Origin: Truepera sp.
GTDB lineage: Bacteria; Deinococcota; Deinococci; Deinococcales; Trueperaceae
Direction: 5' to 3'
Assembly (NCBI GenBank): GCA_965218435.1
Contig: CBDCKW010000009.1
Coordinates: 384,001 to 448,000 of the forward strand
DNA length: 64,000 bases
Part shown: positions 31,924 through 49,748 of the stretch, piece after piece
How positions within the stretch are numbered: position 1 is the stretch's first letter
Layout: each line of letters opens with the position of its first letter
Program-made: the position numbers and the translations under genes
Notes under the pieces: generated by a model
The model's database searches: none
Seen by the model: only the letters and a program-made list of their open reading frames with translations
What the model was told of the DNA's origin: nothing

Positions 31924-32090
31924 GCCATACTAATTTGCTAGACAAACAGAACTTGCTTGGTAGCGGTTAGTTCATTGGCAACGCGCTCCGTCTAGCTTTT
32001 GCTGACCGACGCGCATATTCTGTAATGAGAGTTGGCGCTGTGCGCTATCTCGAGCGTGAGCTAACTCGTTAACAAGGAATATGTGGATAC

Positions 32091-32810: not shown

Positions 32811-33141
32811 AGCTGTTCAAGCCTTCGCTGCCTGGTTCTTGTTACGGTTGTTCGCGGCTGCAGCACTCCAAAAGTGTAGCACCGCGCCCCGGTACCCGGA
32901 TAGCAAGAATCTCTCAACTTGTGGCAGAAGGTTACGGATACCTTTGCTGAACGATATGGTTTCTAACAATATGGTTTCTGACAATGCTCGGCCAGGTTGA
33001 CCTTTGCTTTTGTTGTCATGTTTATAGGTAGGTAAGAGACGTCTTCGCCCATAAGCCGCTGACTTCTGTAAGCTTAATCCCAACTTCTTTTCTGCGGCCC
33101 GCTGCGGACGCTGCCAGCTGAACTTAAAAGGCCGACAGCAG

Positions 33142-34398
33142 CTAGCCTTCGGCTTCTAACCCGGTTGTAACACCCTCTTCGAGTGTCCCCTCGTGCCTGA
33201 GGCCCGGTAAAAACGCGGCCAACACGCCCATTGCCAGCGTCAGCAGCGCCGCAAACGCAAGCAGCGCCCGAATCGAGAGTAGGTCGGCCAGCCCGCCGAC
33301 GCCCATCCCTAGCACAATCGAGCCTTCGATCCCGACAAAATACGCGCCGATCACCCGGCCCCGCAACTCTGCCGGGGTTTTACGCTGGAACAGCAGCCGA
33401 ATCGCAATAATCGCCGGAGCGTTAAAAAAGCCGATGATGGTGAAAAATAAGACGGCCAAGGTCACCGTATTCGTAAAGGTATAAAAAAGTGCCGCGAGTC
33501 CGAGGCTCCCGATACTTATCGCCATCCAGTTGCGTTCCGACAGCCGGTTGCCAAAGCTCGCCATCACAAAGCTGCCGACGACAAAGCCCACCGAGGTCAG
33601 CGCCTCTTGAATCCCGAAGGCGGTTTCGGTCGAGCCCAACACCGTAATAGTGAAGGGTAGCGTCAGGGTGTTTAAGATACCCGAGGTGAAGCCGATACCT
33701 AAGCCTATCGTCAGCACGGCCCGCAGTACCCGGTGTGTAAAGAGATAGTCGAGTCCTTTACGCATATTGCGCGAGACCATCGTAAAGGTCGTCTTTTCGG
33801 TGTTGCCCAGCTTGACGACTGTGATACCCATCAAGCAAACTCCGGCAAAAACAAAGGTCAAAGCGTCGAGCAAAAAGACCCAACCGAGTTCAAACTGCGC
33901 GGCTAACAGGCCCGCAGCAGCGTAACCGACGGCGGTCGAACCGACCGTGCTGATGGACATCAGCGAGTTGGCGGCGGCGAGTTCTTCGTCCGTGGCGAGT
34001 TCGGGTAAGACGCTTTCATACGCGGGCGAGTAAAATTGACGGGCACAGCTCGAGAACCCCACCAGCAGGTAGAGCCAGACCAGCCCGAAGGGGATGATCA
34101 GGGGAATCAGGGCGATAAACCCAGCCTGCACAAAACTGCTCAGCACCAAGATGCGTTTGCGGTCGTAACGGTCGGCGATGACCCCGCCGAAAAGTCCGAA
34201 AATGAGGCTCGGCAGCGAGGTCGCCATCAGCATCAGCCCGACGCTGAGCGCGGAACCCGTCAACCGGTAGACGAGAATTCCGGCGGTCAGGGCGGTCAGC
34301 GCGTCGCCGATGGTCGAGACGAGCTGACCGGTCCACATGAGGGTAAACGAACGGTTTCTAAAAACAGCGAACGGTGAAAGCTGCGTAGGTTGTGACAT
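33142..34398 (-). CDS. MFS transporter (DHA3/macrolide-efflux-like), paralogue A
   Basis: Multi-TM; 'FTLMWTGQLVSTIGD', motif A 'GVIADRYDRKRIL', 'TPAELRGRV'; GAGGA SD before ATG 34398. Confidence 0.9.
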   Translation of the reverse strand: MSQPTQLSPFAVFRNRSFTLMWTGQLVSTIGDALTALTAGILVYRLTGSALSVGLMLMATSLPSLIFGLFGGVIADRYDRKRILVLSSFVQAGFIALIPLIIPFGLVWLYLLVGFSSCARQFYSPAYESVLPELATDEELAAANSLMSISTVGSTAVGYAAAGLLAAQFELGWVFLLDALTFVFAGVCLMGITVVKLGNTEKTTFTMVSRNMRKGLDYLFTHRVLRAVLTIGLGIGFTSGILNTLTLPFTITVLGSTETAFGIQEALTSVGFVVGSFVMASFGNRLSERNWMAISIGSLGLAALFYTFTNTVTLAVLFFTIIGFFNAPAIIAIRLLFQRKTPAELRGRVIGAYFVGIEGSIVLGMGVGGLADLLSIRALLAFAALLTLAMGVLAAFLPGLRHEGTLEEGVTTGLEAEG

Positions 34399-34688
34399 GT
34401 GCGTCCTCGAGCGTCGTACTCGGGTTCGGCGTAGGGGCTTATGACCTACCGAAGCAGTACAACGGGATGGGATAAACACACGATACCATAGTTGCGAAAC
34501 AAAGTGAGGCGTAGATGTGTGAAGTTCACTGCTTTTTCAGACAATGTACTTATAGTTTCAAGCAACTCGAGCCAGGTGCCGAACACAACACCGAACAAGC
34601 CGAACGCGCTCGCAATAAGGAGAAGCGTGCGCCGCGTGACTAAAAGCAGCTTACGGTTGGGCGGTATGTCTACTTTGGCGCAATCTCC

Positions 34689-34883
34689 TCAAGTCCGCTG
34701 AAAGCTCGAGCAGCCCAGGGTAACCGGTGAGTGGCGTAACCTATACGGGAGGAGGGCGGGAGCGACGCCCCCCTGCTCACGAACGGCTTCGATCAGCGCC
34801 ACCTCCCGCAGCGCTATGGTGTCGGCTACCGGCTTAAAAAGCCAGGTGTGAGTCAGTGCTCTTTTTGCTTCCGCTCGAGTCAT
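34689..34883 (-). CDS. Putative 64-aa small protein between the two MFS genes
   Basis: AGAAGGG SD before ATG 34883 (MTRAEAKRALTHTWLFKP...). Confidence 0.4.
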   Translation of the reverse strand: MTRAEAKRALTHTWLFKPVADTIALREVALIEAVREQGGVAPALLPYRLRHSPVTLGCSSFQRT

Positions 34884-35061
34884 ATCCGTTTCCCTTCTGC
34901 TGAGAATCATCAGCCAAGCCACGCTATTTGGTGAACAGGAAGGTTGCTCGCTGCTCCTGAACGTCACGCGGTTTAAGACCTTCCGTTTAAGAACGCCCGT
35001 TGCAGCTCTAGGGTCTAGCGTGTCCACAGCACCTCTCCATTAAGTCGCCCGAACCTCAGCC

Positions 35062-36315
35062 TTACAAAGCGCCACTGGTCACAGGTTTGCTTTCTCCTGC
35101 CTCCGCCCTGAGTCCAGGTAGCACCGCCGCCACGAAACCGAGCAGCAGCGTCAAAAGCGCCGACACGATAATCAGCGTGCGAATACCGAGCAGGTCGCCG
35201 AGACCCCCGGCGAGCAAGCCGAGCACCATCACGGCGTCAACGCCCACGTAGTACGCGCCCAGCACCCGCCCGCGCAGCTTAGGCGGCGTTTTACGCTGAA
35301 ACACCGTCTTGATGGTGATAACAGCGGGTGCATTGAACAGACCGATAAGCCCTGCTAGTGCAACCGTCAGGATGACCGATTGACTCAGCGCATAAACCAG
35401 CGCCGCGCCGCCCATCCCCAACAGACAGAGCGAAATCCAGGCACGTTCTTTAAGCCGCGCTGCAAAGCTCGCCATCACCACACTGCCGAGTACGAAGCCC
35501 AACGACATCATGCCCTCTTGCACGCCGAAGACAAACTCCGAACCACCAGGAAGTTCGGACAGCACAAAAGGCAAAAAGAGCGCGTTGCCCATACCCAAAG
35601 CAAAGAAGATAGCCAAACTCAGGCCGAAGATAGCGCGGAGCAGCGGCGTCCCGAAGAGGTGTGCCAGACCGGAGCGAACATCGCCCAGCACCGTGCGAAC
35701 CCCCTCGTCGTGGTCGCTGGCGTGGTGCGGTACTGTGACGCCCAGAAGAAACGCCCCACCTATTACAAACGTCAGCGCGTCGAGCCAGAAGACTATGTTT
35801 AAGCTCAGCGACGAAGCGAGCAGGCCCGCCGCCGCGAAACCGAGTACCGATGAGGCGGTTGCACTAATGGACATAAACGAATTGGCGGCTTCCAACGCGT
35901 CGTCGTCGGCAATATCGGGCAGCACGCTGTCGTGGGCGGGCATAAAAAATTGCTGGACGGTGCTGGAAAGTGCCACCAAAATGTAAAGCCACACGATGCC
36001 GAACGGCAGCAACAAAGGAATCAGCGCGACAAGTCCCGCTTGCAAAAAGCTGGCGATAACCAGAATCTTCTTACGGTCCCAGCGGTCAACGTACACACCC
36101 GCCACCAGCCCGAACAGCAGACTCGGCAGCGACGTTGCCGCCAGCATCAACCCGACGCTTAAAACCGAACCGGTGAGGCGGTAGACCAGAATTCCGGCGG
36201 CGAGTTGGGTGAGCGAGTCGCCGAACGTCGAGACGAGCCGCCCGAACCACATGAGCGAGAACGAGCGGTTTTTGAAGACGGCGAAAGGTGAGGGCGGACG
36301 AGTGGGTTGGGTCAT
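35062..36315 (-). CDS. MFS transporter (DHA3/macrolide-efflux-like), paralogue B
   Basis: 'FSLMWFGRLVSTFGD', 'GVYVDRWDRKKIL', 'TPPKLRGRV'; clearly homologous to 33142-34398. Confidence 0.9.
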   Translation of the reverse strand: MTQPTRPPSPFAVFKNRSFSLMWFGRLVSTFGDSLTQLAAGILVYRLTGSVLSVGLMLAATSLPSLLFGLVAGVYVDRWDRKKILVIASFLQAGLVALIPLLLPFGIVWLYILVALSSTVQQFFMPAHDSVLPDIADDDALEAANSFMSISATASSVLGFAAAGLLASSLSLNIVFWLDALTFVIGGAFLLGVTVPHHASDHDEGVRTVLGDVRSGLAHLFGTPLLRAIFGLSLAIFFALGMGNALFLPFVLSELPGGSEFVFGVQEGMMSLGFVLGSVVMASFAARLKERAWISLCLLGMGGAALVYALSQSVILTVALAGLIGLFNAPAVITIKTVFQRKTPPKLRGRVLGAYYVGVDAVMVLGLLAGGLGDLLGIRTLIIVSALLTLLLGFVAAVLPGLRAEAGESKPVTSGAL

Positions 36316-37529
36316 GGGGCACTTCCTTCACCAGGATTAGTTTGCGATTCAGCCGTCCCTGAGCTAAAAGCACCCTCGGCACCTTCTAAGAAATTGGATA
36401 GCAACCTCTCGGAAAAACCGAGAAGGATAGCAAGGCCCAACGTCAGCAAAAGTCCATTTTCGGTACTGGTGCCATTTGAGGAGGTTGTACCAGATGATGC
36501 CAAAGCCGCGCCGTCCCTACCTTGGACATCAGGTGTGCTAGGAGTAACTGAAGTAGACGATTCAACCGTGTAAGCCTGAGCAATTACGTTCTCCCACCCA
36601 AATTTGTCAAAAGCATCGCCTAAAACATTGATCTGCGCTAAGAAGACAATCAGCAAAATACCTGTCCAAGCAGCTAACGCACCTGTTACTGGAGCAAGAT
36701 AAAAACTCGTCCAAAACGCTCCATAGTCAGTAGGGAACGCTTGTCGGTTTCTCACCGAACGCACAAGGCGACTCAGGAGGCCACCTACAGCACCGGCAAA
36801 GAGAATAATCGCCGTACCAGGCAGAATCGCCACAATAACGATGATGAACAGTAACGACACCGCCATTAGCCAAGCCGCTTTGTTGTGCCAAGTGACGAGC
36901 CTTGTATATCCGGTATCGAGATAGTCGTACCTGACCCGCAAAGCGTCCTGAAGGAGATTTTTATATCTAACAAACTCTCTAGCGGTTATATTCATATCTG
37001 GAAGATTTAGCGCATCGATTGCTGTTGCAATACCTCGAGCTTCGGCTGTAGAAATATTTTGGAGGCTGTTCTTAATAGTGACCAGTTGAGCAGCTACCTG
37101 CTCACTCTCGTAGAACTCGACTAACCGGCGTTCAACCTCGTGAACACGTCGCCAGCCAGCTATCTCGCCGCCTCTACTCCACAGAAAAAAGTTTAGACCG
37201 AAAGCCCAGGTTTCCACGCCCTTACGTGCTTCTCTAAGGGACTCTCTTAATCCATCAATCTGCGCTCTCTGAAAATCGTTAGGTGAGCTAACTGCACTGT
37301 CAAGGTGGTTTTCAACACCTGCAATTTGTGTCAGAAGCTTTCTATGTGTGGGTGACGCGACATTGTGCCAACGACTGATCAACCAAAAGAATGTATAGAT
37401 GAGTATGACAGCGAAAGCCACGGCGAATTCGGGCTGGTCAAAGGGATTAGAAATTCCAAGCGCACTCCAGATATTCATCCTCTGTAGCTCCTGTCCGACG
37501 CTTTCCCACACGTTGCGTAATACTTGCAT
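36312..37529 (-). CDS. Hypothetical multi-pass membrane protein (AT-rich), translationally coupled to MFS B
   Basis: N-terminal TM, helical region, then 'GAVGGLLSRL'...'LLGFSERL' TM module; ATGA overlap at 36312-36315. Confidence 0.75.
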   Translation of the reverse strand: MQVLRNVWESVGQELQRMNIWSALGISNPFDQPEFAVAFAVILIYTFFWLISRWHNVASPTHRKLLTQIAGVENHLDSAVSSPNDFQRAQIDGLRESLREARKGVETWAFGLNFFLWSRGGEIAGWRRVHEVERRLVEFYESEQVAAQLVTIKNSLQNISTAEARGIATAIDALNLPDMNITAREFVRYKNLLQDALRVRYDYLDTGYTRLVTWHNKAAWLMAVSLLFIIVIVAILPGTAIILFAGAVGGLLSRLVRSVRNRQAFPTDYGAFWTSFYLAPVTGALAAWTGILLIVFLAQINVLGDAFDKFGWENVIAQAYTVESSTSVTPSTPDVQGRDGAALASSGTTSSNGTSTENGLLLTLGLAILLGFSERLLSNFLEGAEGAFSSGTAESQTNPGEGSAP

Positions 37530-37660
37530 GATGGTTTCGGCATATCCCTTTCTCGTCCCTCTTTCTTGGACTGTCGGCGGTATAGCTATGAGTGCAACCG
37601 TATGTTTGATTTCCCGCCGCTACGAGTGAGCGAAGACCAAAACGTTTTTAGCGAGAAATC

Positions 37661-37687
37661 AAAACAAAAGCCGGGAATGACCCGGCT
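37661..37687 (-). terminator. Intrinsic terminator of peptide operon 1
   Basis: Minus strand AGCCGGG-TCATT-CCCGGCT-TTTGTTTT; equivalent hairpin kept in operon 2. Confidence 0.75.
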
Positions 37688-37713
37688 GAAAAATATAAAT
37701 TTGGGTCGTAAAT

Positions 37714-37773
37714 CTAGACTTTGCGGATGGCTTCTACAACTTGCTTCGAGCTAGGGGTTTCTTTGTTACGCAT
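37714..37773 (-). CDS. 19-aa ETPSS-family peptide MRNKETPSSKQVVEAIRKV
   Basis: Manual translation; SD AAGGAGGTGA before ATG; homologous to three other 19-codon ORFs. Confidence 0.75.
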   Translation of the reverse strand: MRNKETPSSKQVVEAIRKV

Positions 37774-37851
37774 AGTATCACCTCCTTTACATTTGGGAAT
37801 GGGCCTCGAGCCGAAAATTCAGCTCAAAAACAGCTGGTTCGGGTCGTAAAT

Positions 37852-37887
37852 TTAGTGGCCTCTATAGAATTCAGGTTGGGGTTTCAT
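37852..37887 (-). CDS. 11-aa peptide MKPQPEFYRGH (shortened or diverged array member)
   Basis: SD AAGGAGGTGA; 3' end TAGAGGCCACTAAATTTACGACCC matches the 3' end of 42711-42770. Confidence 0.55.
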   Translation of the reverse strand: MKPQPEFYRGH

Positions 37888-37963
37888 CGCGCTTCACCTC
37901 CTTCGCGTTTGGAAATGGGTTCGAGCCGGGGGACTCGAGCCTTTAGAGCGTTCGGGCTGCGTT

Positions 37964-38023
37964 CTATATTTTGCGGAAGACGCTCACAATCAGCTTCGAG
38001 CTAGGGGTTTCTTTAATTTTCAT
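37964..38023 (-). CDS. 19-aa ETPSS-family peptide MKIKETPSSKLIVSVFRKI
   Basis: Manual translation; SD AAGGGAGG; first ORF after the promoter. Confidence 0.75.
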   Translation of the reverse strand: MKIKETPSSKLIVSVFRKI

Positions 38024-38055
38024 TTTCTGCCCTCCCTTCTTGCTGAACTGACGGC

Positions 38056-38102
38056 AGTCTACAAAAGGGGGTGTGATGTTAGCGTGATGTTGCCGTGATG
38101 TT
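38056..38102 (-). promoter_or_regulatory. Promoter of peptide operon 1 with three 11-bp-periodic CATCAC boxes (SARP-type)
   Basis: Plus-strand GTGATGTT at 38073, 38084, 38095; -10 TAGACT (38061-38056) 11 nt from the last box. Confidence 0.75.
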
Positions 38103-38127
38103 GGGTTGCACACCCAAACTTAAGTCG

Positions 38128-38172
38128 CGTCACGCCTGCGTCACGCTCACATCACGGGCTGTTTTTTATGCT
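38128..38172 (+). promoter_or_regulatory. Divergent promoter for lipoprotein 38214 with three 11-bp-periodic C(G/A)TCACG boxes
   Basis: CGTCACG 38128, CGTCACG 38139, CATCACG 38150; -10 TATGCT at 38167, again 11 nt after the last CRTCAC. Confidence 0.7.
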
Positions 38173-38213
38173 CACCCTCGAAAAGATCACCTTTTCAACA
38201 CATCTGTAGGAGG

Positions 38214-38687
38214 ATGAGCATGAATACAAGAGCGGGTTGGGTTAGGCGGACGGGACAGGGTATGGCGGCGCTACTTTTGCTGCTGGTGCTGGGGGCGTGC
38301 GAACAGCTTGGGTCAGCGCCGGACGTTGAGCTTTCACCGGCTGCTGTGACGCTGAACAGGCCGATCTATGTAGCACCGGCGTTTAACGCTACCGCCGCCG
38401 TAACCTTCACGAGCTACCGGCGCGACCAGGCTGGCGTTACCTACGCACAGGGAACCTGGAAGATCAATAATACTTACAGCAATCTCTACACCTTTATGCG
38501 CTTTACCGGCGGTGACGGGAAATGGTATTACACCCCAAATGTAGCTCCGAGAACGAACCCCGGTGCGGGAACATGGACGGCTCGCGGGCCTGCCAGAACC
38601 TACTATTGGCAAGTTTGTGGTTGGATTTCAACGAGCAAAGGTTGGACTTCATCGTGTCCTGGAAATCCGACACGCATCTCGCTCTAG
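38214..38687 (+). CDS. Hypothetical lipoprotein (beta-rich, aromatic, C-terminal Cys pair)
   Basis: AGGAGG SD (ATG 38214 or 38220); lipobox 'LGAC'; 'YYWQVCGW...SSCP'. Confidence 0.75.
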   Translation: MSMNTRAGWVRRTGQGMAALLLLLVLGACEQLGSAPDVELSPAAVTLNRPIYVAPAFNATAAVTFTSYRRDQAGVTYAQGTWKINNTYSNLYTFMRFTGGDGKWYYTPNVAPRTNPGAGTWTARGPARTYYWQVCGWISTSKGWTSSCPGNPTRISL

Positions 38688-39042
38688 GCTGACAAGCGAA
38701 CTCACGCCAATCCTTTCAGATTCCTGCGGTTCGATCATCACCCTTCGCCCCGGCTGATTAAAGCGTCGGCCCAACCTAAGCGTGCGCTCTCCAGGGGCGC
38801 ACGCTCATTTGTTTCACTTTTCTGTGATACCCGGTTGCCGCACGCCTCCGGTAAGAGCGCCGAGGTGCAGTTTCCGGCAGCCGCCGAGCTGCTTTTTGGC
38901 GAAATGCATTTTTGCGACAGATACATACTTTTTCTGAAACGCTGCAAAGCGTAATACGCACCTATCAGAAAAATATGCACTATGGAGCCACCGGGTTAGA
39001 CTTCGCACGTTCACCCGACTCTAATTTTTGGTATGCTGGCGA

Positions 39043-42000
39043 ATGCTGCCTCAACTCACGCTGTTCGGCGAGGTTTTGCTCGAGACGCCCACCGGAAGCT
39101 ACACCCTCAGAAGTGGCAAGGGGGCGGCGCTGCTCGTCTATCTGGCGTACCGGGGCGGGTGGGTTCGGCGCGAATCGCTGCTGGCGCTGTTCTGGCCTGA
39201 AACACCGGAAAAGCAGGCGCGGGCGAACCTGCGGCAGCTGTTGGTCAAGCTGCGCCGGTTGCCCTATCTGACGGGGCTCGAGGTCACGGACTCGAGCGTC
39301 CGTTGGCCCGTCGCCACCGACGTTGCGGCGTTCGGAGCGGCGCTGGCGGCGGACGACTTCGCCGCCGCCGCCAAGCTTTACGCGGGGCCGCTGTCAGCCG
39401 ACTTCGACCCTGCCGGTTCCGGCAGCTTCGGCGACTGGCTTGTCGCGGAGCGCGATGGGCTTTTTTTTGCCTTTCGGAGTGCGGCGCTTTCAAGAGCGCG
39501 GGAGTTGCGGCGGCGCGGCGCGGTCGAGGAGCTTGCGGCGGTGCTGGGCGAGTTGTTACGCCACGATCCCTTCGATGAAGACGTGTTGTGCGAACGGCTG
39601 AGCGCCCTCATGGAGGCCGGTCGTTACCGTCAGGCGCTCGCCGCCTACGAAGCGTTTCGGGCGCGGCTCCGGCGTGAGCTGGACGCGGCCCCCGGCAAGG
39701 CGACGCGTGAGCTGGCCGCGCAGGTGCGCGCTGCCGAAGAGCAGAAAGCGTCTGGTCCGTCCGAGCCCTCACCGACGTTCGGCAAACGAGCCACCGACGT
39801 TCCGGCTACAGCGCCCCTGCTTCCGGATTTAGACGTCCCGGAACCGGTCGCCCCCGTTTTGTCTGCGCCGAGTTTGACGCTCCGGGCCTCGAGCGCGTTT
39901 GTGGGCCGCCGTCGAGAGCGGGATGTGGTGCAGAAGTGTCTTGCAGACCCGGCCTGCCGCCTGCTTACGTTAGTCGGGCCGGGGGGCGTCGGCAAGACGC
40001 GGCTGGCCGTTGAGCTGAGCGCCGTCACCGAAGGCTTTCCTGACGGCGTGGTGATGGTACCGCTCGAGGCCGTGTCCGACGTGCAGCTGCTCGCACCGAC
40101 CGTCGCGGCCTGTCTGGGGCTCTCTTTAGACGCGCCCGAAACCCCCGAACAACAAGTTATCGCCCACCTGAGCGGGCGGACATGCCTGCTCATCCTCGAC
40201 AACTTCGAGCAGTTACTGGAGGGTAAGGCGTTTTTGCTCACGTTACTGGCGCGCGCCCCCGGCGTCAAGCTGCTGCTGACCACGCGCGAGCGGCTGGGCG
40301 TTCCGGAGGAGGTGCCCCTCGAGCTGCGCGGTCTTTCGCTCGAAGGTGAAGGTAGCCGACCCGCCGACGCCGTGGCCCTCTTTTTGCACGGTGCCCGCCG
40401 GGTCGGGGTGACCTTGCGGCGTGAGTCCGACCTGCAACACGCCGCCGACATCTGTGCGCTCGTCGAAGGGGTACCGCTGGCGCTCGAGCTGACGAGCGCG
40501 TGGCTCCGGCTCCTCACCCCCGCGGAGGTGAAAACGGAGCTGAGCGCGGGCCTCGACCTGCTCGTCGCGCCGGACACCGAACTTCCCGAACGCCACCGGA
40601 ACATGCGGCGGGTGTTAGCCCGTTCGTGGGCACGTCTGGAGGTGGACGAACAGCGCACCCTGGCCCGCCTGTCGGTTTTTCGGGGCGGTTTTACGTATAC
40701 GGCGGCGAAGGCCGTCACCGGCATGTCGCTGGGCGTGCTGCTGGCGCTCGTTCACAAATCGCTGCTCTACCGGGCGGCGGACGGGCGTTTTACGCTGCAC
40801 GAGTTGGTCCGGCAATACGCCGACGAACAGCTCACGGCGGAGGGTGTACTCGAGCAAGTCAGCGCCGAGCACGCCCGTTACTATCTGGGGCTGCTGGGAA
40901 CGCTCGAGATGTGGAGCGACCACGAAGCGGCCTCGCTCGCCGTACTCGACGCCGAGCTGAACAACCTCCGCGCCGCGTGGCGGTGGGCCGTCCCGAGTGG
41001 GCGCTTACCGGAGTTCTGGGTGCCGAACGACGCGGTGATCTTTTTCGACCGGCGAATGCGGTTTTTGGAAGGGCTCGAGTTTTTCGAGGCAGTTTCGGGT
41101 TGTTTTGACCTGGCAGACCCGGAGTACCGGGAGACGCTCGCAAACCTGCGAATCGACCGGGCGTGGTTGCTGTTTCGTTTGGGACGCTACGCCGAGGCTG
41201 AAGCGCTCGCCGAAGATAGTCTCGACGCGGCGCTGAGTACAAAAACCCGGATGAAAGCCTACAACACGCTCGGCATCATCACCCGGCAACAGGGCCGTTA
41301 TCTGCTGGCTGTCCAGTATATCGAAGGGGCGCTGGCGCTGGCCCGTGAACTCGGCGAGGTGACGCGCATTGCAGCGTACCTTAACAACCTGGGGGCGACG
41401 TGTATCACGTTGGGTGAATATGACCGTGCGGAAGAGGCTTCACGAGCTGCTCTCAACCTGCACCGGGCTGCTGACGATACTTATGGCGTCGTGATGACCT
41501 TGCTCGATCTGGGCAGTATCCATATCTACGGTACTCAACCTGCTTACGCGCGCGCCCTAGAGGTTGTCGAAGAGGCGCTCAAGCTAGCCCACGAGCAGGA
41601 ATTTGCCGATCTCACCTCAGTGCTTCTAATTACGAAGGCGCGAGCGCTCTACCGGCTAGGTGATACGGTGCAGGCTGAACTTGTTTGCCACAAAATCATG
41701 AGCCTTACCACCAAACCGGGGCATACCTGGGACGAAGCGCAGGTTTTTAACCTACTGGGCTACATCGCTACACAAAGAGGCGAGCAGCTTAAGGCGAGGC
41801 AGTATCTGGTCAAAAGTTTTTTGCTGGCTTGGCAGCACCGAGAAATACCTACAATACTTGAAGATATGCTGGCCTTAGCCGAGCTTGAGTTCTCCGAAAA
41901 TGCCCACGAACGAGCCCTTCAACTGCTCGTCGGGGTGATGAGACACCCTGCCGCGTCAGCGGTAAACCGCTGTGATGCCGAGCGGTTTCTTCGGCAGTCG

Positions 42001-42105
42001 GGAATACATCAGCACCTGCTGCAAACCGATAGTGTGCCGCTCGAGCGCTGGGTTCCCACTTTTTTTGGCCTCGAGGGTGAAATAACTGAAAGAGAAATGA
42101 ACTAG
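39043..42105 (+). CDS. AfsR/SARP-family STAND regulator (wHTH-BTAD-NB-ARC-TPR)
   Basis: 'ALLVYLAY..RESLLALFWPE..ARANLRQLL'; BTAD 'DPFDE..ALAAYEAFRARLRRELDAAP'; P-loop 'GPGGVGKT'; 'LLILDNFEQ'; 'GVPLALEL'; 'LHELVRQYA'; TPRs 'AYNTLG', 'YLNNLG'. Confidence 0.92.
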   Translation: MLPQLTLFGEVLLETPTGSYTLRSGKGAALLVYLAYRGGWVRRESLLALFWPETPEKQARANLRQLLVKLRRLPYLTGLEVTDSSVRWPVATDVAAFGAALAADDFAAAAKLYAGPLSADFDPAGSGSFGDWLVAERDGLFFAFRSAALSRARELRRRGAVEELAAVLGELLRHDPFDEDVLCERLSALMEAGRYRQALAAYEAFRARLRRELDAAPGKATRELAAQVRAAEEQKASGPSEPSPTFGKRATDVPATAPLLPDLDVPEPVAPVLSAPSLTLRASSAFVGRRRERDVVQKCLADPACRLLTLVGPGGVGKTRLAVELSAVTEGFPDGVVMVPLEAVSDVQLLAPTVAACLGLSLDAPETPEQQVIAHLSGRTCLLILDNFEQLLEGKAFLLTLLARAPGVKLLLTTRERLGVPEEVPLELRGLSLEGEGSRPADAVALFLHGARRVGVTLRRESDLQHAADICALVEGVPLALELTSAWLRLLTPAEVKTELSAGLDLLVAPDTELPERHRNMRRVLARSWARLEVDEQRTLARLSVFRGGFTYTAAKAVTGMSLGVLLALVHKSLLYRAADGRFTLHELVRQYADEQLTAEGVLEQVSAEHARYYLGLLGTLEMWSDHEAASLAVLDAELNNLRAAWRWAVPSGRLPEFWVPNDAVIFFDRRMRFLEGLEFFEAVSGCFDLADPEYRETLANLRIDRAWLLFRLGRYAEAEALAEDSLDAALSTKTRMKAYNTLGIITRQQGRYLLAVQYIEGALALARELGEVTRIAAYLNNLGATCITLGEYDRAEEASRAALNLHRAADDTYGVVMTLLDLGSIHIYGTQPAYARALEVVEEALKLAHEQEFADLTSVLLITKARALYRLGDTVQAELVCHKIMSLTTKPGHTWDEAQVFNLLGYIATQRGEQLKARQYLVKSFLLAWQHREIPTILEDMLALAELEFSENAHERALQLLVGVMRHPAASAVNRCDAERFLRQSGIHQHLLQTDSVPLERWVPTFFGLEGEITEREMN

Positions 42106-42542
42106 GGGCCTCGAGCCGAAACCGGTAGGATGATTGTGCCGTCATCATCCTTGGGTAACGGGGACCTATCTGCTGGCTCTGACTGCAATCTATCTTTGTG
42201 AGCAGGTTCCCAAAAATTAGGGAGAGTGCTGTCATCTTTGTCGCTGCTATAGATGTAGAGCTGATAGCCTCTGTAAGTAGCCTGAAGACCCCATTCATCT
42301 TTGCGATTGACTGAACTGGGTTTATCAGGCAAGTTCGGATCAGGGTCAGTTACAGGGGGCAGAATCTTCCAACAACTCAATCTTTCTTGCAAGTCTTTAT
42401 CTGCCCACCTGTTTATCAGAGGAATGTAGCTCGTAATTTTATGTAATGAGCAGATATAGACGGGCTGAAAACTCACGCCGTCAAAAGAAGCTTCAAGACA
42501 CTTTTCCGTATCCGTATCGAAACGTAAATGCATGGTATCCAT
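42102..42542 (-). CDS. Hypothetical protein (AT-rich)
   Basis: About 146-aa ORF; GGAGAGG upstream of ATG 42542; convergent stop overlap with the regulator; no family recognised. Confidence 0.5.
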   Translation of the reverse strand: MDTMHLRFDTDTEKCLEASFDGVSFQPVYICSLHKITSYIPLINRWADKDLQERLSCWKILPPVTDPDPNLPDKPSSVNRKDEWGLQATYRGYQLYIYSSDKDDSTLPNFWEPAHKDRLQSEPADRSPLPKDDDGTIILPVSARGP

Positions 42543-42660
42543 CTTTAGCAACCCTCTCCAAGTCGTTAAACAGTTGAGCGGACTATAGCAGAGCCTGGGA
42601 CGAAAAGAAATTCTAAAAAAGTAACGAGTGGTTTAGCTTCTCGAGCACGCCTCTAAAGCT

Positions 42661-42684
42661 TAAAAAGCCGAAAATGACCCAGCT
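42661..42684 (-). terminator. Intrinsic terminator of peptide operon 2
   Basis: Minus strand AGCTGGG-TCATT-TTCGGCT-TTTTA; substitutions relative to copy 1 retain pairing through G-U. Confidence 0.6.
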
Positions 42685-42710
42685 GAAAAATATAAGTTTG
42701 GGTCGTAATT

Positions 42711-42770
42711 TCAGTGGACTCTAATACCGTTTACAACTTGCCCCGAGCTAGGGGTTTCTTGTTTACGCAT
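42711..42770 (-). CDS. 19-aa ETPSS-family peptide MRKQETPSSGQVVNGIRVH
   Basis: Manual translation; SD AAGGAGGTGA; TGA stop at the conserved codon 20. Confidence 0.75.
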   Translation of the reverse strand: MRKQETPSSGQVVNGIRVH

Positions 42771-42841
42771 ATCGTCACCTCCTTCATGCTTTTGAAGAGG
42801 GCTCGAGCCGGAGGACTCGAGCCTTTGGTTCAGGTTACGTT

Positions 42842-42901
42842 TTAGCCTCTGCGGAAGTTGCTCACAATCAGCTTCGAGCTGGGGGTTTCTTTGGTTTTCA
42901 T
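42842..42901 (-). CDS. 19-aa ETPSS-family peptide MKTKETPSSKLIVSNFRRG
   Basis: Equals the C-terminus of ORF-track 42842..43150; SD AAGGGAGG directly before the internal ATG 42901. Confidence 0.75.
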   Translation of the reverse strand: MKTKETPSSKLIVSNFRRG

Positions 42902-42933
42902 TCTGCGCCCTCCCTTCTTTCTGAACTGAGGGC

Positions 42934-42969
42934 AGTCTACAAAAGGGGGCGTGATGTTGGCGTGATGTT
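42934..42969 (-). promoter_or_regulatory. Promoter of peptide operon 2 with two 11-bp-periodic CATCAC boxes
   Basis: GTGATGTT at 42951 and 42962; -10 TAGACT (42939-42934) at the same 11-nt spacing. Confidence 0.7.
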
Positions 42970-43149
42970 GAGTTTTATCTGTCTGGGGACGTAAAAAGTT
43001 GCTTGAGAAGTTAGTCTCTGTAGCTAAAACTCGGCTCTCAGCTAAAGGTCGATAGATAGAACACCCCGGCGTACGGGCTTTTTGGGGGCTCGAGTTCGCC
43101 GCTCTCTCACTATCAGTTACAGGATTCGGGGGTGGGGCTCGAGGGTTCA

Positions 43150-43715
43150 AACTTAACCACCACGGACTCGAAGTCGGTGGGTTGAAGAGCTAGCTGGAAG
43201 CCGGAGGTCACTCTAAAGAGATGTTCTCCTCGCCGCTTTGCTTGTGAGCATCGTAGTGGTTGTTGATGTACTCGTCGATCATCTCATCGGTCACGTTCCC
43301 ACTCGTGGCGCTAAAGTAGCCTCTCGCCCAAAAGTGACGTCCCCAATACCTTTTCCTCAACTCTGGAAACTCCTGTTGCACTTTCCTTGAACTCCGCCCC
43401 TTCGCCCGTTTGATAAATTCGCTCACGGCTAGGTGTGGTGGAATCGACACAAACAGGTGGATGTGGTCACTCGACACCACCCCATTCAGAATCTTGACCC
43501 CTGGCTCTTCAGCTACCTGAGCAATAATTGTCCGTACTCGCCGCTGCAACTCACCCCTCAGCACTCTATAGCGGTACTTCGTGATCCAGACCAAGTGATA
43601 GCGGTGGTGGTACAGCGTATGACTTCCCTTGGTATAGCGTTCCATCACTGCAATTTACACGCTGAAGCGTCGCCCGTCTCGAAGACGGGGGTTTGAATCC
43701 ATTTAGAGGACTATC
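43150..43715 (-). mobile_element. IS200-like element (IS200/IS605 family, tnpA only); boundaries approximate
   Basis: Y1 transposase flanked by subterminal hairpins CCCGTCTCGAAGACGGG (~43673-43689) and CACCACGGACTCGAAGTCGGTGG (~43158-43180). Confidence 0.85.
43208..43648 (-). CDS. tnpA: IS200/IS605 family Y1 transposase
   Basis: 'YHLVWITKYR', HUH 'DHIH', 'KGRSSR', 'FWARGYF', catalytic Tyr in 'EYINNH'. Confidence 0.96.
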   Translation of the reverse strand: MMERYTKGSHTLYHHRYHLVWITKYRYRVLRGELQRRVRTIIAQVAEEPGVKILNGVVSSDHIHLFVSIPPHLAVSEFIKRAKGRSSRKVQQEFPELRKRYWGRHFWARGYFSATSGNVTDEMIDEYINNHYDAHKQSGEENISLE

Positions 43716-43828
43716 AATAAAGTTTATAGAGCTGGGCGCTGCAACTCACTATCGCAGCGCCTCGCTCTATCAAAACAGCTCGCCCTAGCAAGCCGATGGA
43801 CATGTCTTCTCTAAAAATCCGGTCTCGT

Positions 43829-44851
43829 CTAGCTCAAATAATGGGTCAGCAGCGCCAAAGACGCCTCGACATCATTTTTGGCGACCATCTCGGTCACGGT
43901 ATGCACGTAACGTGACGGAATAGAGAGCGTCAGGCTGGCAACGCCGCCCCGTGAACGCTGTATCGTACCCGCGTCGGTGCCGCCTAAGGGCAACAGTTCA
44001 AACTGATACGGCACGCCGTTTTCTTCAGCAAGGGCGATAAACTCGTCTAACAGCCAACGCGTACTGATCGAGGCCGAATCCATTACCTTGAGCGCGACGC
44101 CGCCGCCGAGCTGTGTGACCCGCTGCTCACTCGGCGTGCCCGGAATGTCAACCGCCAGCGTGGTGTCGAGCGCGACGCCGATGTCGGGCTCGACGGCGAA
44201 CGCAGCCGTCTGTGCGCCGCGTAAACCGACCTCTTCTTGAACGCTGAAGACGCCGTACACGTCGTGTGCCGGATTTTTGAGCGCCTTTAACAGCTCGACT
44301 AAAATAAAGCAGTTGACCCTATCGTCCATCGCTTTACCGCTGACGACCTCACCCAAATCTACAAACGGTTGCCGGAGTGTCACCGGGTCGCCGAGCCGCA
44401 CCTTTTCTTTTACGGTGTCGGACTCGAGACCGGTATCGACGATAAACTCGGGTAGTTTCGGTACCTTTTCGCGTTCGTCGGGGTTAGAGATGTGGATAGG
44501 TTTGACGCCGGGGTTCATCACCCCGATGAGGTCGCCGCTACTTGTATGAACCGTGACCTGCCGCGCGAACAAGTTACGCGTATCGAAACCGCCGAGGTTT
44601 TGCACGCGTAAAAAACCGTCGTCATCTATAAAGCGCACGTAAAAACCGATCTCGTCCATGTGCGCCGAGAGCATCACCCGCTTTGCCCCTTCTTTTGAAC
44701 CCTTTTTATGCGCGATCAGGTTGCCCAGCGTGTCGGTCTCCAAGCTGTCTACAACGCCCTCTAACTCGCCGCTGATCAGCTCACGAATCGCCTCTTCACG
44801 GCCCGGAACCCCGGCCCCTTCGGAAAGCCGCTGTAAAAGTTCGTAGTCCAC
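43829..44851 (-). CDS. M42 family aminopeptidase
   Basis: 'SAHMDEIG', 'KAMDDR', 'QEEVGLRGA', 'GGTDAG', 'RYVHT'. Confidence 0.95.
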   Translation of the reverse strand: MDYELLQRLSEGAGVPGREEAIRELISGELEGVVDSLETDTLGNLIAHKKGSKEGAKRVMLSAHMDEIGFYVRFIDDDGFLRVQNLGGFDTRNLFARQVTVHTSSGDLIGVMNPGVKPIHISNPDEREKVPKLPEFIVDTGLESDTVKEKVRLGDPVTLRQPFVDLGEVVSGKAMDDRVNCFILVELLKALKNPAHDVYGVFSVQEEVGLRGAQTAAFAVEPDIGVALDTTLAVDIPGTPSEQRVTQLGGGVALKVMDSASISTRWLLDEFIALAEENGVPYQFELLPLGGTDAGTIQRSRGGVASLTLSIPSRYVHTVTEMVAKNDVEASLALLTHYLS

Positions 44852-44854
44852 CGC

Positions 44855-45619
44855 TTACCTGCCTTTCAGAAATGTTGCTGAACTCTGAACGCTCTCAACC
44901 GGGTTTTTGGGATTGTCGTGCTCGACAATGAACCACTCCGCCCCGGCAGCTTCAGCAGCGGGGAGCAGGGTGTCCCACTCGAGAGTACCCGAGCCGACAT
45001 CGGCCCAACCGTCTTCATCTTCGTTTTCGCCGTCGGGTGCGATGTCTTTAACATGCACGCGTGTGACGCGGCCTGAAAAAGTCTGGAGCAGGTCAAGCGG
45101 GTCTTGGCCGCCTTTAACGACCCAGGCGAGGTCGAGCTCGAGCCCGAGTGCTTCGCCCGCGCCCTCGACGAGCCACTCGAGCGCCGGTCTCCCGTCAATC
45201 AGCCTCAGCTCGAAGTCGTGGTTGTGGTAGAGCAGCTTCATGTTGCTGTTCTGGGCTGCCTTGGCAAGTTCACCAAGACGCACGCCTAAATCTTGCCAAC
45301 CTTCGGCGGTGTCCGAACGGTCGCCGGGGTCGAGCCACGGCACGACGAGCGTATCGTTGCCGACAGCTTGGTTAAACGCGACGACGCCTTCCATATCGGA
45401 CTCGAGGTCGGTTAGGGCGGTGTGACTCGAGGCCACCACCAACCCGTGTTTATCCAGCATGGCCTGAAGTTCGTCGGCGCTGACGCCCTGCGTGCCGACG
45501 GTTTCGATGCCGTCGTAACCAGCTGCGGCAACCTCACCTAAAATCTCGTCTAACGGCGCGCTAAGTTTGCGTAAGCTGTACATCTGAACGGCTAATTTGG
45601 GTTGTGCGGTATCAGTCAT
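44855..45619 (-). CDS. Sugar phosphate isomerase/epimerase (xylose isomerase-like TIM barrel)
   Basis: 'YHNHDFE', 'ELDLAW', 'HVKD', 'VEHD'. Confidence 0.88.
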   Translation of the reverse strand: MTDTAQPKLAVQMYSLRKLSAPLDEILGEVAAAGYDGIETVGTQGVSADELQAMLDKHGLVVASSHTALTDLESDMEGVVAFNQAVGNDTLVVPWLDPGDRSDTAEGWQDLGVRLGELAKAAQNSNMKLLYHNHDFELRLIDGRPALEWLVEGAGEALGLELDLAWVVKGGQDPLDLLQTFSGRVTRVHVKDIAPDGENEDEDGWADVGSGTLEWDTLLPAAEAAGAEWFIVEHDNPKNPVESVQSSATFLKGR

Positions 45620-46715
45620 CTAAAATCCCTTCGATCAGGCCCAGCGGCAAGGGCGCGGGGCGTTCGGTGCGGCTGGCGAGTGTCAAGGTCTTTTCGGCTT
45701 CAGCGGCCTCTAAAATGCTCTGCATAATATCCAGGACATGATACGCCAAGCTCCCGCTCGCCCGGTGGGGTCGTCCGGTGGCGAGGGCCTGCGCTATATC
45801 GGCAACGCCCAAACCACGGCTGTTTTCGGTGTAGCCGTGCGTCAGGGGCAGCGTCGTCCAGGTGTCCGCGCCGCCGCGTTTAATCCTGACCGGCCCGCCG
45901 AAGGTGTTAGGGTCAGGAACGCTCAACGTGCCTTCGGTACCGTAAACCTCGAGCCTCGGCAACTCCGACGCCCACACATCAAACGAGGTCATCAGCGTTC
46001 CGACTGCGCCCGACTCGAAACTTAAGAGGGCGCTGATATGCGTCGGCGTTGTGACCGGAACCTTCGTCCCAAAGTTGGGTTGACTCGTGACCATGCGCTC
46101 GCTAAAGGTCGTTTTGGCGGTGCTCGAGACCTTCTGCACCGGCCCCAACAGGTTCACCAGCGCCGTCAGATAGTACGGCCCGATGTCGAAGAGCGGCCCC
46201 GCCCCCGGCATATAAAAAAAGGCCGGGTCGGGGTGCCACATCTCCATCCCGCGGCTCAGCATAAAGGCAGTTGCGCCCACCGGCTCGCCGATCCAGCCGT
46301 CATCAATGAGTTTGCGGCAGGTCTGTAAGCCCGCGCCTAAAAAGGTGTCGGGGGCACAACCGACGCGCAGGTTTTGCTGCTCAGCCAAGTCTAAAATCGG
46401 TTTAGCGTCTTCACGAACCGTCCCGAGCGGTTTTTCGCTGTAGACCGACTTACCCGCGGCCAAAATGTCTTGGCTGACGCCAGCGTGAGCGTTCGGAACA
46501 GTCAGGTTGATGATGAGTTCGACCTCGGGGTCGGCGAGTAACGCGTCAACACTGAGGGCTTTTTCGACGCCGAACTCGGCGGCCCTAGCCTCGGCGCGGC
46601 TGAGTTCTAAGTCGGCGATGGCCGCGACTCTAAAAGCGCGAAAGAATTTGGCGGCGCTTAGGTACTGAGAACTGACGTTACCTGCGCCGATAATACCGAT
46701 AGGGAGCGGTTGCAT
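45612..46715 (-). CDS. Gfo/Idh/MocA oxidoreductase
   Basis: 'IIGAGNVS', 'SEKPL', 'APDTFLG', 'WHPDPAFFY', 'DIGPYY'. Confidence 0.92.
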   Translation of the reverse strand: MQPLPIGIIGAGNVSSQYLSAAKFFRAFRVAAIADLELSRAEARAAEFGVEKALSVDALLADPEVELIINLTVPNAHAGVSQDILAAGKSVYSEKPLGTVREDAKPILDLAEQQNLRVGCAPDTFLGAGLQTCRKLIDDGWIGEPVGATAFMLSRGMEMWHPDPAFFYMPGAGPLFDIGPYYLTALVNLLGPVQKVSSTAKTTFSERMVTSQPNFGTKVPVTTPTHISALLSFESGAVGTLMTSFDVWASELPRLEVYGTEGTLSVPDPNTFGGPVRIKRGGADTWTTLPLTHGYTENSRGLGVADIAQALATGRPHRASGSLAYHVLDIMQSILEAAEAEKTLTLASRTERPAPLPLGLIEGILDD

Positions 46716-47094
46716 AGATAGGTGACCTCCTCCAGATGAGGTTTACGGGAGCCTAACAGATTGCCGTGAGTGAGACAAGCGTCCCGCGCCCTACGCTCAG
46801 CCGGGTCACGCCTCTAGGTAGGGTCGTGTAGAGACGCGCATGTAGGTTTGACCCCTATTTATCCCTTCCGGATTCGTGGTGCTATAAGGACGCTGCACCT
46901 AGACCGGAGGCTCGAGCAGCGGGGTTAGCGGGGTGAAGATGCCAGTAAAAATACGACACTAAGGATATACACACCGAGAGTATACACATTAAGAACACAG
47001 CACTGAGGAGCTAAGCTCCAGCGTTTGGTTTGACTTAACACCCCCAAACCTCAGTAGCCCGAAATTCAACCTTTAATCTACTTTAGGAGACGCG

Positions 47095-47991: not shown

Positions 47992-48020
47992 GTCGAAGAA
48001 CTAGCGTGCTTAACATAGCT

Positions 48021-48053
48021 GCCGAGCGCCCGGTTCTCGTGTGGGCGCTCGGC
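48021..48053 (+). terminator. Stem-loop downstream of the SDR gene
   Basis: GCCGAGCGCCC-N11-GGGCGCTCGGC; weak U-tract. Confidence 0.45.
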
Positions 48054-48249
48054 TCTGGTAGGTCGGCCCTCGCCTACAGGTTAGCGTTTTAGAAGCTCGA
48101 GTCCTAGACCCTTTACCACGTTTCGCTCAGCCGGCGTTTTCATGGTTACCAGAGGCAAGCTTTGTTTTAACGAGTGTGTCGGCAACTGACGGTGCCCGCC
48201 AAACGTCTTTCTAACCGCAATACCCGTCTTCTCCTTTACACTAGCTTTA

Positions 48250-49737: not shown

Positions 49738-49748
49738 CTTGAGACAAA

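Follow-up and report, generated by a model that had tools for sequence, protein, structure and literature searches.

The DNA analyzed here (the window) is a stretch of 64,000 nucleotides (nt) from the genome of a Truepera sp., phylum Deinococcota (assembly GCA_965218435.1, contig CBDCKW010000009.1, positions 384,001 to 448,000); all coordinates are counted from its first letter. It contains two minus-strand operons of minigenes whose 19-residue products share the motif ETPSS and, between the operons, the gene of a large regulator with BTAD, NB-ARC, and TPR domains. An earlier note made from the same sequence had proposed that these elements form a new peptide system. We followed up this proposal by analyzing the minigenes and their promoters, the regulator, the surrounding genes, and relatives in other genomes.

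Two operons of 19-codon minigenes

Minus-strand reading of the region from 37500 to 43200 placed five short open reading frames (ORFs), their Shine-Dalgarno (SD) sites, and their stop codons at the positions given earlier. Operon 1 consists of pepA1 (37964 to 38023, 19 codons and stop TAG, product MKIKETPSSKLIVSVFRKI, SD AAGGGAGGG), an 11-codon ORF (37852 to 37887, MKPQPEFYRGH, stop TAA, SD AAGGAGGTGA), and pepB1 (37714 to 37773, 19 codons and stop TAG, product MRNKETPSSKQVVEAIRKV, SD AAAGGAGGTGAT). Operon 2 consists of pepA2 (42842 to 42901, 19 codons and stop TAA, product MKTKETPSSKLIVSNFRRG) and pepB2 (42711 to 42770, 19 codons and stop TGA, product MRKQETPSSGQVVNGIRVH). The four ETPSS ORFs are exactly 19 codons long, share M-[KR]-x-x-ETPSS, and end in TAG, TAG, TAA, and TGA; a synonymous CCT/CCC change at Pro7 was verified against the codon table. 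Two types can be distinguished, with the consensus M-K-x-K-ETPSSKLIVS-x-[FY]-R-x-x for type A and M-[KR]-x-[KQ]-ETPSS-[KG]-QVV-x-x-I-R-x-x for type B. The extended SD reads AAGGGAGGG before type A ORFs and AAGGAGGTGA before type B ORFs and the middle ORF; it pairs with the anti-SD over 9 to 12 nt, and the ATG lies 7 nt downstream in each case. The peptides carry a net charge of +2 to +4, contain no Cys, and have a mean hydrophobicity of −0.03 to −0.37.

The peptide units lie within direct repeats that the two operons have in common, 143, 79, and 46 nt long and 80 to 91% identical. The 11-codon ORF appears to be a degenerate unit of type B, its ETPSS core having been lost through a net deletion of 24 nt; it is present neither in operon 2 nor in L024, a metagenome contig that is syntenic with the window and encodes a regulator 70% identical to that of the window. 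Intercistronic hairpins are found in operon 1 (37918 to 37941, minus strand, GGCTCGAGTCCCCCGGCTCGAACC), in operon 2 (42800 to 42823, minus strand, 10-bp stem), and, with another sequence, at the equivalent place in L024. Operon 1 ends in an intrinsic terminator (37687 to 37669, minus strand; AGCCGGGTCATTCCCGGCT then TTTGTTTTG) that is kept in L024. The hairpin 3′ of pepB2 (42666 to 42684, minus strand, AGCTGGGTCATTTTCGGCT) is terminator-like, degenerate, and unscored by the terminator scan. Each operon had been credited with a promoter and a terminator of its own; this holds for both promoters, described below, and for the terminator of operon 1 only.

The word CTCGAG makes up the hairpins between the cistrons of the peptide operons. 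It is the most overrepresented hexamer genome-wide (9,883 copies, 6.7 times expectation), with 19 copies between 37600 and 43100, and GCTCGAGC occurs in the genome at 21 times expectation. Other 6-bp palindromes are strongly avoided: GGATCC is found at 0.05, CCCGGG at 0.18, and GTCGAC at 0.21 times expectation.

The regulator and the promoters of the peptide operons

The regulator gene occupies 39028 to 42105 on the plus strand, and Pfam and a family profile assign to its product a winged helix-turn-helix (wHTH) with BTAD, an NB-ARC/NOD module, and a TPR region. Pfam reported BTAD (E = 2.7e-17, residues 105 to 234), NB-ARC (1.7e-5), AAA_22 (5.7e-6), and TPR_12 (8.4e-16), and a Walker A motif, GPGGVGKT, is visible; Trans_reg_C was not reported at E ≤ 0.001. 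A single-sequence search of the PDB with the regulator returned TPR proteins only, and AfsR was found by the family profile alone. This profile, built from 20 family members, matched AfsR (8k60) with E = 9.7e-46 collinearly over the SARP (Streptomyces antibiotic regulatory protein) and NOD parts, its positions 5 to 580 aligning with AfsR residues 27 to 614. The TPR part of the profile matched many TPR proteins, including NprR (4gpk, E = 3.4e-15) and MalT. Judging from the Pfam domains and the profile match to AfsR, the regulator is a large, AfsR-like SARP. The peptide operons had been said to bracket it, and they do flank it; the regulator gene is, however, on the plus strand, and other genes intervene on both sides, a lipoprotein gene (38214 to 38687, plus strand) toward operon 1 and the orphan gene P0002 (42551 to 42102, minus strand) toward operon 2.

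In front of both peptide operons, the 11-bp sequence AACATCACGNN is directly repeated two or three times, the last repeat ending 8 bp before the −10 element. The box of operon 1 (38070 to 38102, minus strand) has three repeats (AACATCACGGC, AACATCACGCT, and AACATCACACC), followed by the spacer CCCTTTTG and, 8 bp past the last repeat, by the −10 element TAGACT (38056 to 38061, minus strand), which TTTTG precedes. In operon 2, the box (42934 to 42969, minus strand) has AACATCACGCC twice, the same 8-nt spacer as in operon 1, and again TAGACT. A divergent promoter of the same build precedes the lipoprotein gene (38126 to 38172, plus strand), with repeats CGCGTCACGCC, TGCGTCACGCT, and CACATCACGGG, an 8-nt spacer, and the −10 element TATGCT.

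To place these boxes in the genome, we scanned for pairs of CATCACG heptamers at an 11-bp distance, allowing up to one mismatch in the second. Four tandem sites were found in 4.8 Mb, where by our own estimate ~1.6 would be expected by chance; three are the promoters of operon 1, operon 2, and the lipoprotein gene, and the fourth, elsewhere in the genome, looks like a chance occurrence. In L024, box promoters stand before four units: the peptide operon, an orphan ORF of 135 codons, and the genes for the lipoprotein and the P0002 homologue. The seven box promoters from both genomes can be aligned gap-free: all seven have two repeats, four of the seven have a third one upstream, and in every case an 8-nt spacer is followed by a −10 element of the form TAnnCT. 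A sigma-70 scan scored no −35/−10 pair at the box promoters, as expected for activator-dependent promoters.

One source describes SARP targets as direct repeats at a spacing of 11 or 22 bp whose 3′ member lies 8 bp away from the −10 element, and the AfsR box as a 22-bp site of two 11-bp repeats overlapping −35, of which each protomer contacts the first 8 bp (PMC10936776); a second gives the afsS repeat as CGTT(T/C)ATCGNN (PMC10972967). At the level of sequence, the geometry of the boxes described here is that published for SARP targets. It is very likely, then, that the peptide operons are under SARP-box control. That the neighboring regulator drives the peptides, as the earlier note had it, is likewise very probable, since SARP-type repeats lie at the right distance from −10 in both operons. 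Its further suggestion of autoregulation is unsupported because the genome scan found no SARP box upstream of the regulator gene and a strong terminator (38779 to 38805) closes the lipoprotein gene upstream of it.

Coding potential of the minigenes

The coding comparison covered six ORFs from two genomes, four in the window and two in L024. L024 has its peptide operon upstream of the regulator gene, likewise on the minus strand; the two products are MKTKETPSSKLIVSMYRGR and MKTKETPSSKQVVSGIRIH, encoded by 19 codons each behind the same SD types. The earlier argument that selection acts on the peptides was supported by this comparison of synonymous and nonsynonymous change between homologous units: the length is exactly 19 codons in six of six ORFs, and the L024 units keep frame and SD. 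Different stop codons stand at the same place (TAG/TAA/TAG/TAG/TGA/TAA). Synonymous codon differences occur at Thr3, Pro7, Val13, Ser14, and Ile16, and Arg17 is encoded by CGC, CGT, or AGA; a variant co-occurring in the source sequencing run has one more silent change, CCT>CCC, in the Pro7 codon of pepB1 (position 37753). Over codons 2 to 13 of type A, the proportion of nonsynonymous differences (pN) is 0 to 0.04 versus 0.12 to 0.35 for synonymous ones (pS). Positions 14, 15, 18, and 19 vary freely, mostly through multinucleotide nonsynonymous changes, while position 16 is always hydrophobic (F/Y/I) and position 17 always Arg. Both genomes keep the two paralogue types, of which A is marked by KLIVS and B by (K/G)QVV.

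The family also stands out within its own genome. The pattern AARGARACNCCNAGYTCN has three matches there, all in the region of the two operons and the regulator, and its reversed control has none. Only 84 ATG-initiated ORFs of 10 to 35 codons lie behind a 6-nt SD in the 4.8-Mb genome, and among them, the ETPSS ORFs are the sole diverged paralogue family; three of the four are linked by the criterion used (at least two shared 5-mers), and the other families are identical copies within large duplications. The four ETPSS ORFs have no further copies in the genome.

Three points weigh against a coding function. Conservation rests on one independent relative, L024, the four copies of the window being paralogues and not independent samples. 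In type B, pN is equal to or higher than pS over codons 2 to 13. Finally, codons 5 to 9 (ETPSS) are near-invariant as nucleotides, with one synonymous change in 30 codons, so an extra constraint at the DNA or RNA level is possible and a pure dN/dS argument (nonsynonymous against synonymous rate) is weakened. These codons read GAA ACC CCT AGC TCG, nearly the same in all six ORFs, including the pair at L024:4980-5179, and the flanking genes of the two genomes are ~25% different; no RNA structure or known motif accounts for the near-identity.

This near-invariance would be readily understood if the conserved blocks were promoter-proximal DNA or RNA elements, or duplicated promoter cassettes, in which the reading frames are incidental. 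Promoter, 5′ untranslated region, and the first 13 codons form a single block of ~110 near-invariant nt in all three operons, only one synonymous change is seen in the ETPSS core, and the units lie within direct repeats of 79 to 143 nt. Yet frame, length, and stop position are kept in six of six ORFs despite strong nucleotide divergence of the 3′ third, Arg17 survives a CGC-to-AGA change, and every ORF has a perfect SD at the fixed 7-nt spacing. Signs of a structured RNA are also absent: the folding energies of the three operon transcripts are like those of shuffles (z = −1.8, +1.3, and −0.1), and an Rfam search of both strands from 30000 to 50000 at E ≤ 1 gave a single match, an unrelated long noncoding RNA model at 49704. 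Antisense ORFs over the peptide units are not conserved between the window and L024. We therefore consider a noncoding origin of the pattern very improbable and the four 19-codon ORFs, as judged by these comparisons, very probably genuine peptide genes.

The accessory island and its counterpart in L024

The peptide operons and the regulator gene belong to a segment from ~34.5 kb to ~43.8 kb of the window that is, from the gene arrangements of relatives, an accessory island: two genomes of the same genus have the flanking genes without it. In one (G002), the metallophosphoesterase gene has the M42 gene as its direct neighbor, at a distance of 110 bp; in the other (G005), the two are separated only by a 90%-identical orthologue of the MFS gene found at 33142 to 34479 of the window. 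G004 has the same MFS orthologue beside the metallophosphoesterase gene, with the M42 gene on another contig. The island holds a small ORF, an MFS_3 gene, P0001, operon 1, the lipoprotein gene, the regulator gene, P0002, operon 2, and an IS200 transposase gene.

The operon 1 terminator is immediately followed by P0001 (36312 to 37529, minus strand, 405 codons), which encodes a multipass membrane protein of no Pfam family; its stop is overlapped by the start of the MFS_3 transporter gene (35062 to 36315, minus strand), whose product is 83% identical to its L024 counterpart. The orphan lipoprotein encoded by P0003 (38214 to 38687, plus strand) has the lipobox LGAC, and the terminator at 38779 to 38805 follows. 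P0002 (42102 to 42551, minus strand, 149 codons), downstream of operon 2, gave an Atlas match to Lipoprotein_15 (0.88) that is to be taken as a lead only. At the operon 2 edge of the island lies the IS200/Y1 transposase gene (43208 to 43648, minus strand, Pfam E = 9e-44), which is absent from L024. The second MFS_3 gene of the window, at 33142 to 34479, has 90%-identical orthologues beside the metallophosphoesterase gene in two same-genus genomes where the island is absent; the two MFS_3 genes are 55% identical, and the one at 35062 to 36315 travels with the island. The adjacent MFS pair invoked by the earlier note thus comes down to one island-linked transporter gene and one older resident, and the gene after operon 1 is not an MFS gene. 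Export of the peptides through such a pair can apply to one MFS gene at most.

In L024, the flanking genes for thiolase, metallophosphoesterase, M42 peptidase, a TIM-barrel protein, and a GFO/IDH/MocA protein are 65 to 83% identical to those of the window at the protein level. At the same chromosomal site, the two genomes share the peptides, the boxes, the lipoprotein (60% identity), the regulator (70%), a P0002 homologue (41%), and the MFS transporter (83%). The linkage of the peptides to a BTAD regulator, claimed from the window, thus recurs in a second genome as an A/B peptide pair beside a 70%-identical regulator. L024 differs in having a single peptide operon and no peptide ORF between the box and its P0002 homologue. 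By this comparison, operon 2 appears to be a duplicate of an A+B cassette placed in the 5′ leader of P0002, where its degenerate terminator would permit read-through. The protein database has just three relatives of the lipoprotein. The contig given for one of them has a length of 3,866,234 nt, as has that given for a regulator orthologue of 85% identity, and the two are probably one contig.

In the source run X1, there are at least two island variants of near-equal depth (37600 to 43100), plus a contig set at a depth of ~12 and ~83% identity. A low-depth X1 contig joins 42592 to 37928 with a shorter-side flank of 54 nt, a weak join; it hints at a relative in which an A-type unit alone precedes the P0002 gene. 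The sequencing-run contigs represent co-occurring variants and no independent organism, and X3 gave scattered short pieces only.

The gene order after operon 1 raises the possibility that the peptides act in cis, as leader peptides whose translation, or stalling at ETPSS, sets the balance between termination and read-through for the membrane-protein and MFS genes and for P0002, after the model of erm/cat/cml-type or amino acid attenuators. The strong operon 1 terminator stands ~140 nt before the membrane-protein and MFS genes, with no box or scored promoter between, and the nucleotide invariance of codons 4 to 13 would suit a joint constraint on peptide and RNA. Base pairing is conceivable between the 5′ arm of the terminator and a short segment immediately 3′ of pepB (ACGACCC in the window, CCGGC in L024); such a pairing, of 5 to 7 bp, was found by eye and carries no statistics. 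The leader ErmCL likewise has 19 codons and a conserved N-proximal stalling motif, and in attenuators of this type, too, a short ORF with an N-proximal motif and hairpins precedes a resistance or transport gene. In contrast to them, the operons described here have two or three tandem ORFs of two conserved types, each with a maximal SD, which is atypical of leaders, and have promoters that are probably activator-dependent. Minimum free energy and centroid folds contain no alternative antiterminator structure and no excess of structure (z from −1.8 to +1.3), and in L024 the orthologous promoter of the P0002 homologue has the same box with no leader ORF. Moreover, the A and B types, the hydrophobic residue 16, and Arg17 are kept across genomes through codon changes, which indicates selection on the whole peptide. 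Regulation in cis is therefore improbable in our view.

The same neighborhood could be read as that of modified or antimicrobial peptides, that is, precursors of ribosomally synthesized and posttranslationally modified peptides (RiPPs), leaderless bacteriocins, or peptides like the phenol-soluble modulins (PSMs), in which the N-terminal half would serve as recognition or leader part and the C-terminal half as core, the downstream membrane protein and MFS transporter providing export or immunity. A conserved N-terminal and a variable C-terminal half, several paralogues per locus, the net positive charge, and the conservation of the MFS_3 gene in two of two genomes would all fit, and the usual bacteriocin layout is a structural gene, a terminator, and transport genes. 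However, Pfam and PADLOC scans of the island proteins revealed no modifying enzyme, protease, or ABC/C39 exporter: MFS_3 was the only family among the neighbors of the peptide system, the rest belonging to none, and the defense-system results of PADLOC were limited to a weak mad8 match and a generic TPR model. The RiPP-like alternative of the earlier note consequently finds no support in enzymes. The peptides lack Cys, 19 residues are very short for leader plus core, their mean hydrophobicity is negative, and an amphipathic helix is seen in two of six only. The psm-alpha genes of Staphylococcus are also tandem minigenes of ~20 codons with their own ribosome-binding sites, long missed by annotation, whose products are secreted without a signal peptide, and AgrA activates them directly through direct repeats. 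The likeness to the window extends to the tandem ~20-codon minigenes, the ribosome-binding sites, and the direct-repeat promoters; the differences are the nonconserved amphipathic helix, the other regulator class, and a neighboring MFS in place of an ABC exporter. We consider precursors of this kind quite unlikely.

Divergence of the sensor domain

In comparison with its closest orthologue, P0005, the wHTH, BTAD, and NOD parts of the regulator are 97, 92, and 96% identical and the TPR part just 68%. P0008 shows the opposite mosaic (TPR 81%, BTAD 52%). These values suggest that the TPR sensor domain has a history separate from that of the other domains, whether through recombination or through diversifying selection on the sensor.

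Such a mosaic is what co-diversification of a receptor and its ligands would give. In an RRNPP-like loop, along the lines of the ligands or inhibitors envisaged by the earlier note, the peptides, perhaps exported by the MFS transporter and reimported, would bind the TPR domain and switch the regulator, forming a self-signaling or pherotype circuit. The receptor gene is flanked by peptide genes, the TPR region of the profile resembles NprR and MalT, and positions 14, 15, 18, and 19 of the peptides are hypervariable while length, hydrophobic residue 16, and Arg17 are kept. The RRNPP, Rgg-SHP, and ComR-ComS systems of Firmicutes likewise place a TPR transcription factor beside very short unannotated peptide genes, and RRNPP-class peptides have 17 to 25 residues, an MK-K start, and a variable C-terminal part. 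The TPR likeness is generic, however, with consensus TPR proteins outscoring NprR, and RRNPP receptors combine TPR with an XRE-type HTH or a phosphatase, whereas here the DNA-binding part is SARP/BTAD and an NB-ARC ATPase module is added. No box precedes the regulator gene, so positive feedback on the receptor is not visible. The peptides are hydrophilic, with no secretion signal or hydrophobic export segment, and no oligopeptide permease (Opp) importer, PptAB/Eep-type exporter, or protease was seen among the 15 neighbors scanned. Nor did the literature searches bring up peptide binding by any SARP or AfsR-type protein, and none is known to us. An RRNPP-like loop is thus unlikely.

A related and equally doubtful interpretation is a peptide-signaling system of a new receptor class, in which the TPR domain of a STAND protein would recognize the variable C-termini of its own leaderless 19-residue peptides. 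The mosaic divergence (68% for TPR versus 92 to 97% elsewhere) and the variable peptide C-termini are compatible with it. If true, an NLR-like factor with a fast-evolving, recombining TPR domain and A/B peptides exported by the island MFS would create strain-specific "pherotypes" outside the Firmicutes RRNPP world.

Distribution of the peptides and the regulator

The family was not recognized by the author of the earlier note, and no known family matched it in our searches either: Rfam gave none in the region, and none of the four pattern matches in other genomes is credible. These four came from a search of representative genomes of ~185,000 species with a strict degenerate peptide pattern, and all lie in long frames or lack an SD; viral contigs gave no match. 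Type A ORFs with Tyr16 would escape this pattern, which demands W-T-Y at codon 16. Operon 1 DNA compared with 40 relatives gave three chance-level matches of 21 to 34 nt. Regulator orthologues form about eight clusters with 54 to 85% identity among 5.8 billion proteins, the next proteins being at most 38% identical; at the family level, one of 127 genomes matched (35% identity), and at the phylum level, none of 363 other genomes matched at E ≤ 1e-180. P0001 homologues were found in 6 of 300 phylum genomes, with no peptide ORFs near any. Taken at face value, these searches show a peptide-regulator family that is very narrowly distributed.

Metagenome loci of related STAND regulators (76 in number) were scanned for paralogous SD-preceded small ORFs, and only L024 and L059 to L061 gave a real signal. 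The latter were rejected as a wider instance of the system because their regulator is LuxR-type (LAL) and not a SARP. They carry tandem 26-codon minigenes (L059:8618-8900, L060:7677-7960, L061:3418-3700 and 6377-6560) with an AAGGA SD and a ~101-nt period, in three to five copies (for example, MFRMTVRYMRYALSALSGVGFGASLN) unrelated to the ETPSS peptides. These minigenes lie directly downstream of a LAL-type STAND regulator gene (AAA + GerE), near P450 and AMP-binding genes, and may be a RiPP-like cluster. An array in L015 (2385-3612) of ten SD-preceded ORFs of 13 to 14 codons with a 117-nt period was also rejected, being antisense to a propeller-like gene with 39-residue repeats; SD-like GGAGG words recur antisense to Pro/Ser-rich repeats, as in this case.

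Searches of the literature for ETPSS (among the matches listed), for SARP/NB-ARC/TPR proteins with small peptides, and for Deinococcota BTAD proteins with small ORFs found no description of such peptides. According to one review, SARPs occur exclusively in actinobacteria (PMC10972967). Many nonactinobacterial proteins are already labeled SARP-type in database annotations.

Discussion

The locus is best described, as far as sequence can tell, as a small accessory-island regulon of a large SARP (SARP-NB-ARC-TPR) with tandem peptide minigenes as its apparent main output. On balance, we favor the overall reading that the minigenes are the main transcriptional output of the adjacent AfsR-like regulator and that their peptides act in trans.

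According to this reading, two or three SARP domains would bind side by side on the 11-bp repeats, as published AfsR structures lead one to expect. Because the repeats stand in for the −35 element and end 8 bp before −10, the bound regulator would recruit RNA polymerase; by analogy, a cue read by the NB-ARC/TPR half would turn it on. The promoters are predicted to give short, leader-poor mRNAs with near-perfect ribosome-binding sites, that of operon 1 with an intercistronic hairpin and a terminator at its end. These mRNAs would be heavily translated, and a fraction of transcripts may pass the terminator into the membrane-protein and MFS_3 genes. Other genes driven by the box would be that of the orphan lipoprotein and, in L024, a further two orphans, and it is this sharing of the box that makes the set a putative small island-borne regulon. 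In the weakest step, the cationic peptides, presumed to be unmodified, would work in trans, either as small effectors or as signals, in the way that AfsS serves AfsR, and they may leave the cell through the co-conserved MFS transporter. Action in trans, rather than in cis, appears reasonably probable to us by analogy, given that two paralogue types and the whole 19-residue frame are kept, that the regulon includes envelope proteins, and that a transporter is co-conserved.

Several observations speak against this scheme. In L024, a nonhomologous 404-codon membrane protein takes the place of P0001, and the box drives the P0002 homologue with no peptide ORF between, so the peptides are dispensable at that promoter. 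Binding of the regulator to the box is deduced solely from the geometry of the repeats. By inspection, the peptides have no signal sequence or hydrophobic export segment. Neither is there a conserved amphipathic helix: the hydrophobic moment of residues 10 to 19 beats shuffles (fraction <0.05) in only two of six peptides, and an amphipathic-helix interpretation (PSM or antimicrobial peptide) was dropped as a conserved property.

The nearest parallel to the proposed regulon would be the activation of afsS by AfsR in Streptomyces. Both regulators combine a SARP part (wHTH + BTAD), NB-ARC/NOD, and TPR, as the profile match to 8k60 indicates. In both systems, two 11-bp repeats cover the −35 position, with the first 8 to 9 bp conserved and the last 2 to 3 bp free, and the 3′ repeat ends 8 bp from −10. 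In both, too, the principal target is a small ORF adjoining the regulator gene, although its activation is here deduced. The systems differ in that the host phylum is Deinococcota and not Actinobacteria, and in that the repeat is AACATCACGNN instead of CGTT(T/C)ATCGNN. While AfsS is a single protein, reportedly of ~63 residues, the peptides described here are separate 19-residue products of tandem A/B minigenes in one or two operons, and the regulon also holds envelope proteins and an MFS transporter. The novel elements are the family of peptides and the box, which is specified completely; large SARPs that target a small ORF next to their own gene were known before.

The general importance of the system is limited by its very narrow distribution, about eight orthologue clusters among 5.8 billion proteins and 0 of 363 phylum genomes. 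If the favored reading is true, it would provide a large-SARP regulon outside actinobacteria that is defined by box sequence, spacing, and seven promoters in two genomes. It would also add a family of 19-residue proteins that is invisible to gene callers and would show that a STAND/NLR-like switch can have minigenes of this kind as its chief output. To our knowledge, the ligands and outputs of large SARPs are largely unknown even in Streptomyces. A small system of a regulator, a box, and a peptide would then be a tractable model for what the NB-ARC/TPR half of AfsR-type proteins senses and for whether small peptides feed back on it.

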